In this document: in pieces, positions 18,133-25,035 of the stretch | Numbering within the stretch: position 1 is the first letter of the stretch | Layout of the letters: the number at the start of each line of letters is the position of its first letter | Origin: Fibrobacterota bacterium | GTDB taxonomy: Bacteria > Fibrobacterota > Fibrobacteria > UBA11236 | NCBI GenBank assembly: GCA_947482115.1 | Contig: CANKII010000004.1 | Span: forward strand, 221,630-253,629 | Direction: 5' to 3' | DNA: 32,000 nt | Translations under genes and position numbers: made by a program | The notes under the pieces: model-generated | The model's database searches: none | What the model was told of the DNA's origin: nothing | Seen by the model: only the letters and a program-made list of their open reading frames with translations

Positions 18133-18477
18133 ATGAAAAATTATCACATCGAACAACTGGATGAAATTCCATCAACCCTGTGTCCGTGCGGCACCACGCA
18201 ACGCGCCTTTGTCGGTGGAGACAATACCGTGGCTTCGATCCATCTGGTGGATATCTCAAAAGACAGCCGGGCGCATTACCACCGGAAACTGACGGAGATC
18301 TATTTGATTCTCGAAGGCGAAGGTCACATGGAACTCGACGGCGAAATGATTCCCGTCAAACCGCTGACCACCATTCTCATCCAACCCGGATGCCGTCATC
18401 GTGCCGTCGGGCAAATGCGCATCGTCAACATCCCGATACCGGTTTACGATCCCGACGATGAATTTTTTGACGACTGA
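18133..18477 (+). CDS. cupin domain protein
   Basis: It is 114 aa. AHYHRKLTEIYLILEGEGHMELDGE...ILIQPGCRHRAVG matches cupin motifs 1 and 2. The ATG at 18133 is internal to the track ORF. Confidence 0.75.
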   Translation: MKNYHIEQLDEIPSTLCPCGTTQRAFVGGDNTVASIHLVDISKDSRAHYHRKLTEIYLILEGEGHMELDGEMIPVKPLTTILIQPGCRHRAVGQMRIVNIPIPVYDPDDEFFDD

Positions 18478-18780: not shown

Positions 18781-18932
18781 TTAGCCCAGTACGGCTTTGA
18801 GGATGACGTCGCGAACCGATGTCATCGGCATTGAAGTCCCGCTTACCAGGGACTTATCCCCGATCAGCAATGGAGCCTCCGCCGGATTATCGGCGGGGGT
18901 TCCATGCGATTCCCTTCGTATACTCCGAATCC
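18781..18932 (-). pseudogene. frameshifted remnant of the 3' end of an eboF-like (AP-superfamily phosphodiesterase) gene
   Basis: The reverse strand reads ...ESHGTPADNPAEAPLLIGDKSLVSGTSMPMTSVRDVILKAVLG followed by a stop. The intact gene at 20419 reads ...KGSHGTPADDPAEAPLLIGAVALIHGTSMPMTSVHDVILQAVAGL followed by a stop. Nucleotide blocks of 19 and 30 nt are identical. There is a 1-nt indel near 18915, and no upstream coding body. Confidence 0.7.
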
Positions 18933-18999: not shown

Positions 19000-20307
19000 C
19001 TAAGGCCTCTTGATTACCGGCCAGGATCTGTGTACACTGCCCGCACGAAAATCCAGAAAATACTTCCCGGCGGGCAGGATTTTGAATGGCAGGCTTAAAG
19101 AATGGTTCCCCGGGGCCTCTACGCGTTGCAGGTTCCAAACAGGGCGCCCCAAGGCGTCGCGCACGGTGAGGGAAACTTCCAGAGCATATGGAAGACGATA
19201 AACTATCACACCATTCGCCAGATCAGCTAAAGTGTTCGATTCCAACTTAGTCTGAATTCCCACAATGACTGCAGCGGAGGGATCTGTCTTGAGCAAGGTC
19301 CCACTATCGCCTACGGCGAAGGCGGTAGTTGAGGAGGCCACTTCAACGGCATAAAGGGTCCTGTTCGTTATGGGCGCTTCCGTAAGCCAAGAATCGCCCC
19401 CATCCGTGGTTTTCATTACCAAGCCGCTGTTGCCCACGGCATAACCGATGCTTTTTCCGGAAAAAGTGATGTTGTTCAGAATTTTGGAAGGCGTCACACG
19501 ATTCACCCAAGTGGCACCCCCGTTCGTGGTCTTTTGAATATTGCTCACTTGAAACGTCCCTCCGGGGCAAAGTGGAGTGACGCCGCAAATTCCGGGAGGG
19601 GTGTATCCCGTATACCCCACCACGGCAAACCCCGTATCGTTGCTTAAAAATTGTCCGGCTTTCCACGGACTACTGGATGTACTGAGATTTGACCATGCCG
19701 TCCCTTGGCCGCTGTCGGTCAGGATTTCACCCCAAGATTCGGAGCTGCTCACCGTTGAGACACGAACGGCGCCGAAGAAAATCCTCTTTGGACCCGAGGA
19801 GCGCAGCGGAATGGAGACATACAAACCTCCGGAGACCATAAGATTTTCCTTCCTGCCATAGACGGGAAGTGTATGAACGCCACCGTCCGTAGTCTTGAAA
19901 ACTTCCAGCGAGTCGTTTGACACCAACGCAAACCATCCCGTGTTCACGTTGATGAAGGAAAAGGCGCGGATGTCGGCCGACGCCTTTGTCACGAAGCTCC
20001 AATTCACACCGCCATCCGTGGTTTTATACAGGGAGTCGCCTCCGGCCACGACCCACCCGGTTCGACCGGTGATAAATTGTGCCGGACCGAGGTTGGCTTT
20101 GAGAGCCGCGAAGGACAACTTGATCCATGCGGTTCCCCCGTTGGTGGTCTTCAAATAGACGCCTGAGTCCCCGAACGCGTATCCGGTGTCCGTTCCGATA
20201 AATTGCAGAGAACGCAACGAGGCAAGGGTGGTGGTGGGAACGACTTCCCAAGCCTGGATCGAGGACACGCAAACAACCATCGTGACGATCCAGCGCAAGA
20301 GTTTCAT
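19000..20307 (-). CDS. secreted BNR/Ycf48-like beta-propeller protein with a T9SS C-terminal sorting domain
   Basis: AAGGAGG lies 7 nt before the ATG at 20307. The signal peptide is MKLLRWIVTMVVCVSSIQA. T(T/N)(D/N)GG..W motifs recur: KTTNGGTAW, KTTDGGVNW, KTTDGGVH, KTTNGGATW and KTTDGGDSW. The C-terminal domain reads ...LTVRDALGRPVW...LPAGKYFLDF.... Confidence 0.8.
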   Translation of the reverse strand: MKLLRWIVTMVVCVSSIQAWEVVPTTTLASLRSLQFIGTDTGYAFGDSGVYLKTTNGGTAWIKLSFAALKANLGPAQFITGRTGWVVAGGDSLYKTTDGGVNWSFVTKASADIRAFSFINVNTGWFALVSNDSLEVFKTTDGGVHTLPVYGRKENLMVSGGLYVSIPLRSSGPKRIFFGAVRVSTVSSSESWGEILTDSGQGTAWSNLSTSSSPWKAGQFLSNDTGFAVVGYTGYTPPGICGVTPLCPGGTFQVSNIQKTTNGGATWVNRVTPSKILNNITFSGKSIGYAVGNSGLVMKTTDGGDSWLTEAPITNRTLYAVEVASSTTAFAVGDSGTLLKTDPSAAVIVGIQTKLESNTLADLANGVIVYRLPYALEVSLTVRDALGRPVWNLQRVEAPGNHSLSLPFKILPAGKYFLDFRAGSVHRSWPVIKRP

Positions 20308-20418
20308 GGGGGATCCTCCTTTTGGGTTCATCTGTAATATACTCGGCGATTTTGAAAATCATCGGGAGGCGAAAAAATTCTTCTCGTCTTGTTCGAAAAA
20401 ATCTCGTTTTTCCGGTTT

Positions 20419-21798
20419 TTATAGGCCTGCCACAGCCTGGAGAATCACATCGTGAACCGATGTCATCGGCATGGATGTTCCGTGAATCAGCGCAACGGCC
20501 CCGATCAGCAATGGAGCCTCCGCCGGATCGTCGGCGGGGGTACCATGCGATCCCTTTACCAGCGATGCATCCAGCGGAATCACATCCATGTAATAGCGGA
20601 AGCCCAGCTTCTTCTTGAGCAAGGTGAATCCCATCTTCGCCTTCACCAGCGGTTGCGCCGGATCGAGAAACAGCTCCACCGGATCATAACCCGGTTTGCG
20701 ATGAATATCCACACAGCGTGCGAAGTCCGGCGCAAGCTTCTCATCTTCCCAGAAATAGTAAGTGTACCAGTTGTCCGGCTCGGCCATGAGGATGACATCT
20801 CCGGCACGTTCATGATCGAGTCCATATTGTTTACGCTCATCCCCCACCAGAATCTTCCGCGTTCCCGGTTCCTTTTTAAACAGCTCGACAACCTGATTGA
20901 GACAGGATTTATCATTCAAATAGATGTGGCAAATCTGATGATCCGAAACCGCGAAGGCTTTGCTGGCTCCCGCATCCAGAATTTCCCAAGTCACGCTGGG
21001 CCTCACTTCAAGCAGACCCGCTTTGCGCAGAATGCGATTGGGATCGGTATGCCGGGTGACCTTGGTAATCCCGTATTCAGAGACCACCAAAACTTTCACA
21101 CCCTGTTTTTCGTAGAACTCGATCAAATCTCCGGCCACCGCATCAATGGCTTTCAACTCTTCGGGAATTTCCGGTGCATCCGGTCCAAACTTCTGCAAAC
21201 TGTAATCGAGATGCGGCAAATACACCAGCGACAAGGTGGGATGTTTTTTCTCCTGAATCCATTTTGCGCTGGCGGCAATCCACTTCGAAGAACCGATGCC
21301 TGCCGCCGGACCCCAGAAGGCCGGGAAGGGAAAGAGGCCGAGATCCTTCACCAAAGGATCATGCAATTCCAACGGATGTGTGTACACGTCGAAAACCTTG
21401 CGGCCATCGGCGGGATAATGCGGTCGTGGCGTCACCGACCAGTCCACACCGGAATACATGTTGTACCACCAGAACAGCTTGGCACAGGTGAAGCCAGGAT
21501 ATTGTTTCAGCGTGTCATAAATCTTTTCGCCCTGAATCAACGTATTGCTTTGCTTCCAGAATCCCACTTCGGCGAGATCATGGAAGTACCAGCCATTGCC
21601 CACAATACCATGATCGTCTGGAAGCTTTCCCGTCAACATAGTGGCTTGACTCGTGCAGGTCACCGCAGGAAACGGTTCTTCGAGTCGCACATGCGCATTG
21701 CGCTCCCAAAACGCTTTGAGCTTCGGAGTATGCTCTCCGATCAACGACGGCGTCAGCCCGACAATATTGAGTACAGCAGTGGGATTAAGCTTTGTCAT
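20419..21798 (-). CDS. alkaline-phosphatase-superfamily nucleotide pyrophosphatase/phosphodiesterase (EboF-like)
   Basis: MTKLNPTAVLNIVGLTPSLIGEHTPKL...AVTCTSQATMLTG...YLPHLDY...VSEYG are AP-superfamily metal and nucleophile blocks. The ATG at 21798 overlaps the upstream gene by 14 nt. Confidence 0.75.
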   Translation of the reverse strand: MTKLNPTAVLNIVGLTPSLIGEHTPKLKAFWERNAHVRLEEPFPAVTCTSQATMLTGKLPDDHGIVGNGWYFHDLAEVGFWKQSNTLIQGEKIYDTLKQYPGFTCAKLFWWYNMYSGVDWSVTPRPHYPADGRKVFDVYTHPLELHDPLVKDLGLFPFPAFWGPAAGIGSSKWIAASAKWIQEKKHPTLSLVYLPHLDYSLQKFGPDAPEIPEELKAIDAVAGDLIEFYEKQGVKVLVVSEYGITKVTRHTDPNRILRKAGLLEVRPSVTWEILDAGASKAFAVSDHQICHIYLNDKSCLNQVVELFKKEPGTRKILVGDERKQYGLDHERAGDVILMAEPDNWYTYYFWEDEKLAPDFARCVDIHRKPGYDPVELFLDPAQPLVKAKMGFTLLKKKLGFRYYMDVIPLDASLVKGSHGTPADDPAEAPLLIGAVALIHGTSMPMTSVHDVILQAVAGL

Positions 21799-23077
21799 CA
21801 AATACTCCAGGCTCTTGCTTGCGAATAAAATCCAATTCCTGCGCCAAACATTGCGCCAATGCCGTATCCGAATCGGGACGATGGGCTTCCGGCAGAACAC
21901 TCCATGTGTAAGTTTCAATTTCGAATTGGGAACACAGATTATGCTTCAGCGCATAGCGTAAGGCGCGCAGCATATCCCCGCGCGTGGTACGAATGGATCC
22001 ATCCAGCAGCGATTCCGCATGAATGGGCACATGATAATGCACCCGCCAAGGATGCGCGAATAAATCTGCTCCTGCTTCCAACACCTGTGGTAAATCATCA
22101 AAATCGATCACGCCTTGCGGAGTATTCACCCGGGTTTGATGCAAAAATTTCGGTTCCACAAATTGGGAACGTAAAGCGCGGGATTGGCCATCGGCATCAA
22201 CCGGAAATTCCAAAGCGCTGGAAAGCTGTATCTTGTGAATGGGAATTCCGGCTTGATGCAAGGATTCCAAAGCCTCTTCGGGATTTTCAAATTGCACGGC
22301 CTGATGACAGGTGTCGTAGCAAATCCCCAAATGTGTGTCGATGAGTTCTGAAATTCCGGCGTGCGAGGCGGCGGGACGTAGAACATCTTTCCAGAATGCC
22401 AATACTTGAGGCGTTCGCTCCAACACACAACCCGGTTCCGGTTCAATTGCCAGCGCAATTGTTTTTCCAGTCCGAGTTCGAAGAGCATCGAGAAAACGTG
22501 TTAGCTCGATCAAAGCCTCTGCCGCTCTTTCACTTTGGTTTTGAGTCCAACCTTCGCGCCAACCCAAGGGCAAAGTTGAGATGGATCCAAATCCATTTTC
22601 AGGAAGCAATGCGGCCAGAACTTCGGCGCAACCTTGTGTGTATTTCAACCGGGCAGGCTCGGTCCAATCCGGCAAATACACTTTTCGTTTAACAACCGCT
22701 TCGTGGAAATCACCGTAAGGAAAGGCGTTCAAAGTGAATGTCGAGACACCCCAAGCTTCCAGCTCTTTGCGCAGACTTTCCACGCCCTCTTGCAGTACGT
22801 CCTGCAGCACATCATTGCTAAACCAGAGGCCCATGGGAAAGGGTTTCCAGCCCAGCGCAGAGCCGACTTGGGGGCCGAAAAACCGGATCTTGTCCTTCCA
22901 AACCGCCCAATTTTGGAGCGGATGGACGTTAGTACAGTATGTAAGTGCCTGCTTTTTCAAGATTTGTGGGGGTTTAATTGATTTTCCTCGCCCCAAAATA
23001 GAGCTTTTGCTGTACTTTAATCTATAAACCGTCAGCTTTCCGGCTTTTGAGAGGTGGGTAATCCACATGGTTCGCAT
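21785..23077 (-). CDS. xylose-isomerase-like TIM-barrel protein (EboE-like)
   Basis: LTYCTNVHP...NAFPYGDFH..VVK..VY.PDWT.P.R..YT...LLPE...SIST.PLG resembles what I recall of EboE. The start is uncertain. The first 40 or so residues of the track ORF look non-homologous. An in-frame TTG at 22960 would give MKKQALTYCTNVHP. Confidence 0.7.
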   Translation of the reverse strand: MRTMWITHLSKAGKLTVYRLKYSKSSILGRGKSIKPPQILKKQALTYCTNVHPLQNWAVWKDKIRFFGPQVGSALGWKPFPMGLWFSNDVLQDVLQEGVESLRKELEAWGVSTFTLNAFPYGDFHEAVVKRKVYLPDWTEPARLKYTQGCAEVLAALLPENGFGSISTLPLGWREGWTQNQSERAAEALIELTRFLDALRTRTGKTIALAIEPEPGCVLERTPQVLAFWKDVLRPAASHAGISELIDTHLGICYDTCHQAVQFENPEEALESLHQAGIPIHKIQLSSALEFPVDADGQSRALRSQFVEPKFLHQTRVNTPQGVIDFDDLPQVLEAGADLFAHPWRVHYHVPIHAESLLDGSIRTTRGDMLRALRYALKHNLCSQFEIETYTWSVLPEAHRPDSDTALAQCLAQELDFIRKQEPGVFDDKA

Positions 23078-23129
23078 TCAATCCGCGACTTCCGCGGATA
23101 CTAATACGCATTCGTCCGCCCAAACTGGG

Positions 23130-24236
23130 ATGGCTGTGGAGACGTGGAATTCGCCACTCACGGGCAATATGCCCATTCATTTCGGAGATGGCGCCTTGGA
23201 TACCCTTCCCGCCTTGTTGCAGGAGCTTTCCCCGGACAAGGTTTTTCTGGTTTCCGACCCGCATGTTTTTGATTTGTACGGTGCCTTCCTGATTCACCTG
23301 CTTTCCAGCCGCTTTGCCCCCGAAGTGGTGCTCATTCCCGAAGGCGAGAATGAAAAGAAACTTTCCAACCTCGAAGAATTGTGCGAAGAGCTGTTCAATC
23401 GAGGGGCGACCAAGTCCTCAGTAATCGTGAACTTCGGTGGCGGTGTAGTGCTGAATGTCGGCGGCATGGCTGCCAGTTTGATTTATCGCGGCATCCGCTT
23501 CGTGCATGTGCCCACCACTTTGATGGCGCAAAGCGACGTGATTGTTTCCAACAAACAAGGCGTTAATTTTGCGAACGGAAAAAATCGACTCGGTCTTTTT
23601 TCCAAACCCGTGGCAGCTTTCGCTGATCCGCGCTTCTACAACACCGAATTGCCGCGCCAGTTGCGCGCTTCCTTGGTGGAATATTGCAAGAACGCGATTC
23701 TGCTCGGTGGCAAACATTTTGAAACCGCGATGGCATACTTTGAAGCGGGCAATGCGCTGGCTCCCGCCAAGCTGCGCCAGTTGCTGCGCTATTCGCTGGA
23801 ACAGAAATTTGAAATCGCAAAACTGGATCCGACAGAACGCGGCTTCGGCCTCGTCCTGGAATACGGTCATACGGTAGGCCATGCGGTGGAGTTTTTGTCA
23901 CAGGGCCGCGTACTGCATGGTGAAGCCGTGTACCATGGAATGCGAGTAGCCGGAAGACTGGCCAATATTCTCGGGATTTTTCCGGATGCGGAATACAAGA
24001 AGCAAACGTCGCTGTTGAACAAGATTCCCGACATCCAAAGCATTCCTGCGGACATTTCTGTCGGACAGATTTTGCAGGCCGTGCAGCGCGACAACAAGAA
24101 GCGCGACAAGGGGCTGGCGTTCATTCTGATGCAGGCCATTGGCCAGCCGAATCGCCGCGGCGAATCGGTGCTGACGCCGGTGCCGGAAGAGGCCCTGCAA
24201 CAGGTGCTGCTGGAATACCGGGATGCTTTGCTATAG
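23130..24236 (+). CDS. 3-dehydroquinate-synthase-family sugar-phosphate cyclase (EboD-like)
   Basis: FGGGVVLNVGG is the NAD-binding glycine loop. VHVPTTLMAQSDV..SNKQGVNF, EYGHTVGHAVE and LHGEAVYHGM are the metal-binding His motifs. I chose the ATG at 23130 so that it does not overlap the divergent gene. Confidence 0.8.
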   Translation: MAVETWNSPLTGNMPIHFGDGALDTLPALLQELSPDKVFLVSDPHVFDLYGAFLIHLLSSRFAPEVVLIPEGENEKKLSNLEELCEELFNRGATKSSVIVNFGGGVVLNVGGMAASLIYRGIRFVHVPTTLMAQSDVIVSNKQGVNFANGKNRLGLFSKPVAAFADPRFYNTELPRQLRASLVEYCKNAILLGGKHFETAMAYFEAGNALAPAKLRQLLRYSLEQKFEIAKLDPTERGFGLVLEYGHTVGHAVEFLSQGRVLHGEAVYHGMRVAGRLANILGIFPDAEYKKQTSLLNKIPDIQSIPADISVGQILQAVQRDNKKRDKGLAFILMQAIGQPNRRGESVLTPVPEEALQQVLLEYRDALL

Positions 24237-25035
24237 CACGGCATCGCTGCCGGATCGTTTCACCCCTTCACAAATCGCCGAGACCTTGCTTCCCACACCC
24301 TTTCGCGGTGTGGAACTCGCCGTTACTCCCGGGCATTTGCGCCGTGCGAACGATGCCAGTTTCTGGTTGGGCTTTCGCACGGAATTGGAAACACGCGGAC
24401 TGTGCATCCGCAACGTGCAACTCGGCCACCCTTTTCTTCTCGGACCTGTCGCCCACTCCCCCGGCCTCTCTTCGCCGGATCCCGTGGGACGTCAACGCCG
24501 CATCGAAGCCGCATTAATAGCGGCATCCATTGCAGAAAAAGTCGGAAGTCCGTTTCTGACGGTGACGACAGGTTTGCCGGAACGCGCCGGAGATTTTGCG
24601 GTTCAGGAAAAACTGTTTTTCGATTCCCTGTCTGAAATCGTTTCAGGTCGTCCCAAAAAAGTGAAGGTTGCGATTGAACAGGAACCGGAGCATGTCATCC
24701 ATCGCACCGATCAAATGCTCTTTCTCTGCCGCAGCTTTGAGGGCGAAGTGTTCTCCAACTTCGACGTAGGTCACAGCTTCGTGGCCGGTGAAGATCCGGC
24801 GCAATGCATTCGTGAACTGGGTCGCTATCTATCGAACATTCATCTGGAAGACATCAAGGGCCGGGTTCACAAGCATTTGATGTTTGGGGATGGCGACATC
24901 GACTTCCGCGCCTTGTTTGCGGCGTTGAAGGAGATCAGATATCAGGGCGATCTGACGCCAGATCTGTATCCGTTCAAGGATGAACCGGTGAAGGCATTGA
25001 GGGAGTCAGCGGAGTTTTTGGCACGGATGGGGTAG
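24223..25035 (+). CDS. sugar phosphate isomerase/epimerase (xylose-isomerase-like TIM barrel, AP_endonuc_2 family)
   Basis: VAIEQEPEHV, NFDVGHSF, NIHLEDIKG..HKHLMFGDGDIDF and YQGDLTPDLYP fit the family pattern. It overlaps the cyclase gene by 14 nt. Confidence 0.8.
   Translation: MLCYSTASLPDRFTPSQIAETLLPTPFRGVELAVTPGHLRRANDASFWLGFRTELETRGLCIRNVQLGHPFLLGPVAHSPGLSSPDPVGRQRRIEAALIAASIAEKVGSPFLTVTTGLPERAGDFAVQEKLFFDSLSEIVSGRPKKVKVAIEQEPEHVIHRTDQMLFLCRSFEGEVFSNFDVGHSFVAGEDPAQCIRELGRYLSNIHLEDIKGRVHKHLMFGDGDIDFRALFAALKEIRYQGDLTPDLYPFKDEPVKALRESAEFLARMG

Follow-up and report, generated by a model that had tools for sequence, protein, structure and literature searches.

A split ebo gene set in Fibrobacterota with a predicted DOIS-type cyclase coupled to an extra TIM barrel

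Does a locus with eboE, eboF, a sugar-phosphate cyclase and a second TIM barrel in an uncultured Fibrobacterota bacterium represent the remains of an ebo cluster or one part of a dispersed pathway, and which enzyme supplies its cyclitol? The canonical eboABCDEF operon has been described in Bacteroidota, Cyanobacteria and eustigmatophyte plastids (Yurchenko 2016, PMC5133447; Klicki 2018, PMC6282210; preprint 10.64898/2026.05.21.724671), and Fibrobacterota is mentioned in none of these three sources. A preliminary description of the 32,000-nucleotide stretch analysed here (positions 221630–253629 of contig 4; hereafter the window) had read the locus as a truncated cluster with an EboD-like cyclase, making a soluble, non-prenylated cyclitol phosphate, or else as a split cluster with its other genes elsewhere. 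It had also referred to a role of ebo genes in scytonemin precursor traffic, a view since overtaken by the 2026 preprint, in which thallusin was found to require ebo genes and EboD to supply the cyclitol (10.64898/2026.05.21.724671).

The four-gene block and the ebo genes outside the window

The four open reading frames and their families were found where they had been described. The features of the locus, followed by the related genes elsewhere in the genome, are given below (window coordinates unless a contig is named).

20419–21798, minus strand: eboF, AP-superfamily phosphodiesterase, 459 aa from ATG 21798; PF01663, 205.6 bits
21785–22960, minus strand: eboE, TIM barrel of the xylose-isomerase-like type, start TTG 22960 (391 aa); open frame continuing to 23077
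22961–23066, no strand: divergent intergenic region with a conserved A/T-rich 20-mer at 23009–23031
23067–24236, plus strand: sugar-phosphate cyclase, predicted DOIS-type, 389 aa (start ATG 23067) or 368 aa (start ATG 23130)
24223–25035, plus strand: TIM2, TIM barrel resembling metal-dependent sugar epimerases/isomerases, 270 aa; PF01261, 96.7 bits
18781–18932, minus strand: eboF 3′-end remnant, 81% identical to 20419–20570
Contig 4, 36115–37005: EboC-type UbiA prenyltransferase, 185 kb upstream
Contig 9, 69157–70059: eboB, TatD-like hydrolase; PF01026, 64.7 bits

In both pairs the genes overlap by exactly 14 nt, between the eboE stop and the eboF start (21785–21798) and between the cyclase stop and the TIM2 start (24223–24236), as had been noted before. 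The divergent spacer, previously given as about 170 bp, measures 169 bp with ATG 23130 as the cyclase start. It shortens to 106 bp with ATG 23067, a codon conserved without change across six loci of the genus and followed by an in-frame 3-nt indel. An alignment of the six loci also placed the eboE start, TTG or GTG, at the same position, and retained the A/T-rich 20-mer of the spacer, which reads GTTTATAGATTAAAGTAC on the minus strand and is a candidate shared promoter or operator. Around the locus, no element was matched in an Rfam search, and neither a sigma-70-type consensus promoter nor a clear terminator was found.

The assignment of the minus-strand genes to EboE and EboF held, as both proteins fell with their canonical counterparts. 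EboE, the sole copy in the genome, scored 412 bits against the TIM_EboE equivalog model NF035939 (cut-off 250). EboF was 46–58% identical to the products of eboF genes behind eboE in clusters of other phyla and 67–84% identical to those of Fibrobacterota; use of a longer eboF frame from TTG 21918 is unlikely. The genome contains no eboF paralogue besides the 3′ remnant, which was recovered by tblastn at 72% identity over 47 aa. This remnant marks a genome-specific insertion (a BNR/T9SS gene and a cupin) downstream of eboF, and in the closest relative, L019, rnhA directly follows eboF. The idea that the remnant is a trace of eboC loss was rejected because L019 also lacks eboC at that position.

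Because the same four genes, with eboF and eboE divergent from cyclase and TIM2, recur in more than 20 related Fibrobacterota genomes and metagenome contigs, their arrangement is not a product of chance. Moreover, the cyclase/TIM2 overlap was again 14 nt in four more distant contigs (L101, L103, L104 and L105).

The genome is 99% complete, and its ebo genes lie at three loci, at 242–247 kb and 36 kb of contig 4 and at 68–70 kb of contig 9, rather than in a single collinear eboA–F operon; no complete operon was found elsewhere in the genome. An EboC-like UbiA and an EboB-like TatD are absent from the 32-kb window, as first described, and the genome-wide matches lie at contig 4 (36 and 17 kb), contig 3 (35 kb) and contig 9 (69 kb). 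On contig 9, eboA and eboB form a pair in which the EboA and TatD genes overlap by 8 nt. EboA scored 155 bits with the domain model NF035938 (cut-off 50) and 224.7 bits with the family model NF035937, under its cut-off of 320, and EboB was 63–71% identical to EboB of Bacteroidota, Balneolota, Rhodothermota and Cyanobacteriota clusters. The UbiA had EboC (NF035940) as its best NCBIfam match, at 136 bits and under the cut-off of 250, and was the reciprocal best hit of canonical EboCs, with 25–38% identity. In the tree it grouped (support 100) with eboF-adjacent UbiAs of other Fibrobacterota genera, nested among the EboCs of other phyla. Because of the score below the cut-off and the low identity, its substrates may differ from those of canonical EboC.

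Across 31 relatives, EboE, EboA, EboB and UbiA occurred together in 20–24 genomes, and the same seven genomes lacked all four. Every exception to this co-occurrence was a genome of 66–83% completeness. The ebo cluster is split, not truncated, as one of the two earlier readings had proposed. Given the physical separation of the three loci, their co-regulation may be presumed only.

Family placement of the cyclase

The earlier label of the cyclase as EboD-like was correct as to the DHQS superfamily but not as to the branch. Among relatives of solved structure, BtrC (PDB 2D2X), a 2-deoxy-scyllo-inosose synthase (DOIS), scored best, with 202.7 bits and 33% identity over 354 aa, compared with at most 143 bits for DHQS, 84 for EEVS and 55 for DDGS. 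The cyclase motif LEYGHTVGH resembles FEYGHTIGH of BtrC, which contains Glu243, where EboD has PLDFGHW and DHQS has LNYGHT. In the alignment to 2D2X, the metal and catalytic positions K141, E183, K186, E235, E243, H246, H250 and H262 were all matched, Lys141 included, and the Glu243-type motif was common to the cyclase and 20 DOIS-clade sequences, most of which are annotated as DOIS. Furthermore, the cyclase clade was sister to the DOIS clade (aLRT 99), the EboD (DEI synthase) clade was separate (support 100), and the AU test rejected a grouping of cyclase with EboD (p = 0.0029). Because solved-structure scores, active-site motif, tree and AU test all agree, the cyclase is classified from its sequence as DOIS-type, apparently replacing canonical EboD rather than being its orthologue. 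Consistently, no canonical EboD was found in the genome: canonical EboD queries matched aroB first, and no other candidate emerged.

The best NCBIfam match of the cyclase was aroB (TIGR01357, 238.5 bits), and public sources name it 3-dehydroquinate synthase. It might on these grounds be taken as a second housekeeping DHQS beside a dehydroshikimate-dehydratase-like TIM2, with eboE–eboF as coincidental neighbours. This reading was rejected as highly improbable, because the score lies under the equivalog cut-off of 305, the true aroB is on contig 1 (223386–224420, 360 bits), the cyclase has the Glu typical of DOIS where DHQS has Asn, and it occurs only in ebo-bearing genomes, always beside eboE.

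Since the cyclase clade branches beside the annotated DOIS enzymes rather than within them, mannose-6-phosphate or a different sugar phosphate could serve as the enzyme's substrate. The genomic setting differs as well. The cyclase shares the metal and catalytic residues of the aminoglycoside enzyme BtrC, whereas its clade sits with eboE–eboF and TIM2, and the window locus contains no aminotransferase. At three inspected DOIS-clade loci from other phyla, the neighbours were DegT/class-III aminotransferase, glycosyltransferase or radical-SAM genes, and no ebo genes were present. A search of the literature for DOIS in combination with Fibrobacter gave no result.

The coupled TIM barrel, TIM2

In all cases observed, TIM2 and the cyclase were coupled. 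All named members of its family (179 matches at E ≤ 1e-10) were from Fibrobacterota, and among 151 sampled genomes of the phylum it was present only in two families (f1 and f2); the family is almost confined to Fibrobacterota. The AlphaFold2 model (pLDDT 96) gave UlaE, D-psicose 3-epimerase, Art22 and IolI as top Foldseek matches (TM 0.77–0.86). Residues E152, D181, H184, H207, E209, D243 and D247 are invariant; judging from their positions at the ends of strands 5–8, E152, D181, H207 and D243/D247 would be the metal ligands. The modelled (beta/alpha)8 fold, of the ketose 3-epimerase/UlaE kind, and the conservation of acidic and His residues are in keeping with a metal-dependent epimerase/isomerase. 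A simple enediol epimerase could not directly interconvert DOI and DEI, because the differing carbon is not adjacent to the ketone.

In the actinomycete Lentzea (L032), a TIM domain is fused to EboA. TIM2 was the only significant match to this domain in the genome (33% identity over 190 aa, E 3e-19), and a specific "Rosetta stone" relationship was considered. It was dropped because, in a search of 1.84 billion representatives with the TIM2 profile, more than 150 stand-alone generic TIM barrels reached at least 105 bits and the Lentzea domain reached 88.6 bits. For the next tier of TIM2 relatives, all matches were generic epimerases/isomerases and no informative gene context was found.

Proposed pathway, alternatives and implications

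Gene identities, family placements, synteny and co-inheritance are direct observations, and onto them we project substrates, an order of steps and an end product that are inferred. In the best reading, an ebo pathway of otherwise ordinary make-up receives its cyclitol from an entry module specific to this lineage. We consider the locus, with a probability of roughly 0.7, to be the core of a Fibrobacterota-type ebo pathway that in this genus is split three ways and that has a two-gene, translationally coupled entry module. In the first step, the NAD+- and metal-dependent DOIS-type cyclase would most likely convert a hexose-6-phosphate, probably glucose-6-phosphate, to 2-deoxy-inosose. TIM2 would then tailor this ketocyclitol, or its sugar-phosphate precursor, for entry into the shared downstream steps. 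The cyclitol would next be processed by EboE, EboF, EboB and EboA, and prenylation by the UbiA would finally give a prenylated metabolite resembling thallusin or saccharoquinoline, or one related to such a compound.

As in the canonical operon, this genome has orthologous EboE, EboF, EboB and EboA, an EboC-type UbiA and a cluster-associated DHQS-superfamily cyclase; the Fibrobacterota genes differ in being non-collinear, in having a predicted DOIS-type cyclase and a coupled extra TIM barrel instead of EboD, and in that UbiA and EboA score under the curated equivalog/subfamily cut-offs. Actinomycetota swap eboD for another route, ino1-3 (preprint 10.64898/2026.05.21.724671). The Lentzea-type cluster also lacks canonical EboD in favour of another cyclitol route, has a xylose-isomerase-like TIM barrel tied to the pathway, and has a UbiA that groups with the present one in one region of the EboC tree. 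However, the actinomycete entry enzyme is inositol-3-phosphate synthase, not a DOIS-type cyclase, and its EboA-fused TIM domain is only a distant relative of TIM2. In Planctomycetota (Stieleria maiorica), the ebo genes are scattered and still serve one pathway (preprint 10.64898/2026.05.21.724671). The dispersal is shared, whereas planctomycetes keep canonical EboD, mostly without eboA, and the genome described here retains eboA, with EboD replaced.

Of the alternatives, the first concerns TIM2, which could work upstream of the cyclase and, as an isomerase/epimerase of sugar phosphates, provide its substrate instead of tailoring the cyclitol. The closest folds of TIM2 include phosphosugar 3-epimerases such as UlaE, its family carries the annotation sugar phosphate isomerase/epimerase in the sources, annotated DOIS enzymes form a clade distinct from that of the cyclase, and the conserved downstream Ebo enzymes argue for the same intermediate. 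Nevertheless, the Glu243-type motif of the cyclase is that of DOIS, unlike EboD, and we know of no enzyme in this TIM-barrel branch that makes mannose-6-phosphate. An upstream role is rather unlikely.

Equally to be weighed is whether the four window genes form a self-contained route to a soluble, non-prenylated cyclitol or its phosphate, as first suggested, with eboA–eboB and the UbiA serving unrelated processes. The block is the most tightly conserved unit, its flanks vary even among close relatives, the UbiA and eboA–eboB lie far from it in this genus, and the UbiA scores under the EboC cut-off. Yet in at least six other genera or contigs a UbiA orthologue immediately follows eboF, and the genes for the prenyltransferase, TatD and EboA have been kept and are jointly present or absent with the locus across the 31 relatives. 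In addition, eboB, eboC, eboE and eboF were each required for one product in the planctomycete with scattered ebo genes (preprint 10.64898/2026.05.21.724671). A soluble end product is quite improbable in view of these points.

Within the preferred reading of a lineage-specific entry module, a narrower proposal can be made at somewhat less than even odds: a third, previously undescribed ebo entry route, in one order of Fibrobacterota, in which the DOIS-type cyclase makes 2-deoxy-scyllo-inosose and the dedicated TIM barrel converts it to a pathway intermediate. If true, it would join EboD acting from mannose-6-phosphate and the actinomycete Ino1-3 as an ebo entry and, combined with the divergent EboC, could lead to a prenylated signal that derives from a cyclitol and differs from thallusin. 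2-Deoxy-scyllo-inosose is known so far as an aminoglycoside precursor, and the present locus would represent use of a DOIS-like cyclase outside aminoglycoside biosynthesis. To our knowledge, no secondary metabolism of the prenylated-cyclitol-signal kind is known from Fibrobacterota.

The ebo genes are hereby extended to Fibrobacterota, a lineage that would probably escape homology screens that start from Maribacter EboA–F and apply a filter on cluster counts. Thallusin is a bacterial signal that acts at picomolar levels on the shape of green seaweeds and is tied to the ebo genes (preprint 10.64898/2026.05.21.724671), and the step from cyclitol precursor to its quinoline core is a setting in which such a variant is informative. 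A DOIS-type cyclase with one extra enzyme, and with EboE, EboF, EboB, EboA and EboC kept, would narrow which intermediate the downstream enzymes need, and cyclase and TIM2 would offer a simple two-enzyme system for in vitro work.

The four-gene locus and its divergent spacer

The window occupies positions 221630–253629 of contig 4 in the source genome (2.72 Mb, 15 contigs, 99% complete), which has uncultured Fibrobacterota/Fibrobacteria MAGs as its nearest named kin. All four open reading frames of the preliminary description were found at the locus, and the overlap claimed for both gene pairs was exactly 14 nt in each.

Features of the locus (window coordinates)
20419–21798, minus strand: eboF, 459 aa from ATG 21798; PF01663, 205.6 bits
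21785–22960, minus strand: eboE, 391 aa from TTG 22960, frame open to 23077; NF035939, 412 bits (cut-off 250)
23067/23130–24236, plus strand: DHQS-family cyclase, 389 or 368 aa
24223–25035, plus strand: TIM2, a PF01261 TIM barrel, 270 aa; 96.7 bits

The divergent spacer was aligned across six loci of the window's genus. The eboE start position was TTG or GTG in all six loci. The cyclase ATG at 23067 was invariant, and the indel that follows it is 3 nt long and in frame, a pattern in favour of the longer cyclase. The spacer measures 106 bp with this start and 169 bp with ATG 23130. It contains a conserved A/T-rich 20-mer, GTTTATAGATTAAAGTAC (minus strand, 23009–23031), a candidate shared promoter or operator; neither an Rfam family match nor a sigma-70 consensus site was found in the spacer, the 20-mer included.

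Distribution of eboA, eboB and eboC

As described previously, the window lacks an EboC-like UbiA prenyltransferase and an EboB-like TatD hydrolase. Genome-wide searches bore out the alternative, also raised then, that the remaining genes lie elsewhere. The EboA domain had a single match in the genome (155 bits, cut-off 50; contig 9, 68661–69074), within a 246-aa gene that overlaps a 301-aa TatD-family gene by 8 nt. The TatD-family protein begins with MYIDPHIHM and shares 63–71% identity with EboBs of canonical clusters. The top match to the EboC model was a 296-aa UbiA on contig 4 (36115–37005), which scored 136 bits, under the 250-bit cut-off; even so, it matched no family better than EboC, SCO3242-type prenyltransferases scoring 120 bits, and canonical EboCs from three phyla found this protein first when searched against the genome. 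In a tree (like the other trees, a 'quick' search with SH-aLRT as the only support), it grouped at support 100 with other Fibrobacterota UbiAs, a group embedded among EboCs of ebo clusters from Acidobacteriota, Actinomycetota and Planctomycetota; the two remaining UbiA paralogues of the genome were distant outgroups. No complete eboA–F operon was found elsewhere in the genome. The ebo cluster is split, not truncated.

In other Fibrobacterota (loci L022–L025, L027, L104 and L105; genomes G012 and G014–G018), the UbiA gene directly follows eboF, indicating an ancestral layout of eboC<-eboF<-eboE | cyclase->TIM2. Therefore, eboC moved away from the locus in the genus of the window. The start of the relocated gene lies 4 nt beyond a pair of genes that match AAA_21 (AbiEii-like ATPase) and, weakly, RloB-like proteins (pair and UbiA together: contig 4, 34298–37005; L007, 4299–7006). 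The pair resembles a small module for defence or abortive infection. Downstream of eboF, an 81%-identical copy of its last ~50 codons (18781–18932) lies 1.5 kb from the intact gene, with a BNR/Ycf48-like gene bearing a T9SS-type tail in between (19000–20331) and a cupin gene beyond the remnant (18133–18477). In the closest relative (L019), rnhA directly follows eboF, so that this ~2.3-kb stretch is an insertion specific to the source genome and unlinked to the relocation of eboC.

Co-occurrence was assessed among 31 relatives, all MAGs of uneven completeness. EboE was present in 24, EboB and UbiA in 23 each, and EboA in 21; seven relatives (G020, G022 and G026–G030) lacked all four, and the few discordant ones were 66–83% complete. 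As kin are not independent, joint presence and absence was counted as support rather than as a statistic. Two larger genomes of the same family (G016 and G017) each carry two eboA–eboB pairs and a single eboE, and G018 has a second eboB with a single eboE. The eboB of the small G019 genome (1.6 Mb; contig 1, 1268312–1269172) contains an in-frame TAG, and TIM2 of G012 (contig 234, 52254–53162) is broken into two adjacent pieces; these may reflect lineage-level decay or assembly errors.

The cyclase and its coupled TIM barrel

The cyclase had been described as EboD-like, a reading overturned by scores, motif, tree and topology test, all of which assign it to the type of 2-deoxy-scyllo-inosose synthase (DOIS). 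An assignment as aroB was rejected, since its TIGR01357 score of 238.5 bits is below the cut-off of 305 and the true aroB (360 bits) is on contig 1. The closest solved structure was the DOIS BtrC (2D2X, 202.7 bits), followed by DHQS (at most 143 bits), the EEVS ValA (84) and a DDGS (55). BLASTP likewise gave 208 bits for BtrC, 139–151 for DHQS and only 89–114 for canonical EboDs. BtrC residues K141, E183, K186, E235, E243, H246, H250 and H262 were all matched in the alignment; E243 we take, from published work on BtrC, to be the DOIS-specific catalytic residue. The surrounding motif separates the families.

Motif around the active site
LEYGHTVGH: window cyclase and all Fibrobacterota orthologues
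(L/F)EYGHT(I/V)GH: 20 DOIS-clade sequences, mostly annotated DOIS (Paenibacillus, Streptomyces, Pseudomonas and others)
PLDFGHW(A/S)AH: 23 canonical EboDs
LN(Y/L)GHTFGH: DHQS

A maximum-likelihood tree of 52 sequences recovered the Fibrobacterota cyclases as a clade (SH-aLRT support 99), the DOIS clade (98) as its sister (joint support 99) and EboD as a separate clade (100). An AU test rejected the grouping of the Fibrobacterota cyclases with EboD (p = 0.0029; the choice of group followed inspection of a first tree). Furthermore, canonical EboD queries matched aroB first in the source genome, indicating that no EboD is hidden elsewhere. The window cyclase is thus not an EboD.

Neighbours in the three DOIS-clade loci inspected were DegT or class-III aminotransferases, glycosyltransferases, a PIG-L deacetylase or radical-SAM enzymes; those of the Fibrobacterota cyclase clade were always eboE–eboF and TIM2. 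A different EboE (~426 bits to the model, 34–37% identity to that of the window) is carried by two other genomes within the order, G024 (L009) and G025 (L008), and is adjoined in G025 by a canonical-type EboD. Canonical and DOIS-type ebo therefore both occur within one order, and the DOIS-type module is a replacement. On a distant contig (L103, 9938–13167), the genes after cyclase and TIM2 encode a glutamine amidotransferase/chorismate-binding fusion protein and an aminotransferase of the DegT family, which may extend the pathway in that lineage.

TIM2 belongs to a small family: a search of 5.8 billion clusters gave 179 proteins with E ≤ 1e-10, every named one from Fibrobacterota. About eight representatives (50% identity) scored above 219 bits against its profile, and the next tier consisted of generic TIM barrels. 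When 151 genomes were sampled evenly across the phylum, TIM2 turned up only in families f1 (10 of 11 genomes) and f2 (2 of 2). Four more contigs, with cyclases just 41–48% identical to that of the window, again have TIM2 overlapping the stop of the cyclase gene by 14 nt, which argues for obligatory co-expression of the two genes. An AlphaFold2 model built with 27 sequences (pLDDT 96, pTM 0.92) had as top Foldseek matches the L-xylulose-5-phosphate 3-epimerase UlaE, D-psicose/D-tagatose 3-epimerases, the isomerase Art22 and IolI (TM 0.77–0.86). Enzymes of this branch bind a divalent metal at the ends of strands 5–8. The invariant residues E152 (also E154 and E156), D181, H184, H207, E209, D243 and D247 are at or near these strand ends and, by analogy, probably occupy the metal-binding position.

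A link to actinomycete TIM–EboA fusions was considered and rejected. Such fusions were mentioned in passing by Yurchenko et al. 2016 (PMC5133447), and a Lentzea sp. ebo cluster (L032, 7819–9147) encodes one of 442 aa between eboC and eboB, with a xylose-isomerase-like TIM barrel and a C-terminal EboA domain (148.7 bits). Its TIM domain shares 33% identity with TIM2 (E 3e-19), its sole significant match in the source genome. Over 150 unrelated TIM barrels among the representatives scored higher against the TIM2 profile (at least 105 bits) than this domain did (88.6 bits). Therefore, the domain and TIM2 belong to one broad branch without being special relatives, and the match is not taken as evidence of function.

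Proposed entry into the ebo pathway

According to a May 2026 preprint on thallusin (10.64898/2026.05.21.724671), each of the 27 producers tested has ebo genes and the non-producers lack them. The quinoline core incorporates L-aspartate, a cyclitol precursor origin is also proposed, trihydroxyquinaldate is farnesylated by EboC, and Actinomycetota without eboD apparently use an inositol route (ino1–3). In this light, the locus in Fibrobacterota can be read as an ebo pathway whose entry module is of a third kind. Its DOIS-type cyclase would most likely convert a hexose-6-phosphate to a 2-deoxy-inosose, and TIM2 might either tailor this ketocyclitol (isomerisation, epimerisation or dehydration) or prepare the sugar phosphate. 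The carbon at which the DOIS product and DEI, the product of EboD, differ is C4; as it is not adjacent to the ketone, a single enediol epimerisation step should not interconvert them. Later aromatisation of the ring, as the preprint proposes, would erase the C4 stereocentre, which could explain why the entry enzyme is exchangeable. With a UbiA this divergent from canonical EboCs (25–38% identity), the product may be one other than thallusin.

Split ebo systems and ebo systems lacking eboD have already been described for Planctomycetota and Actinomycetota. Neither Fibrobacterota, a DOIS-type cyclase nor this TIM barrel is mentioned in PMC5133447, PMC6282210 or 10.64898/2026.05.21.724671, and a full-text literature search combining DOIS with Fibrobacter gave no hits. 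The screen in the preprint used Maribacter EboA–F queries and kept only phyla with at least 10 clusters and orders with at least 10 genomes (10.64898/2026.05.21.724671), which may explain why the Fibrobacterota lineage was not noted. The biochemistry of this Fibrobacterota ebo variant is testable.
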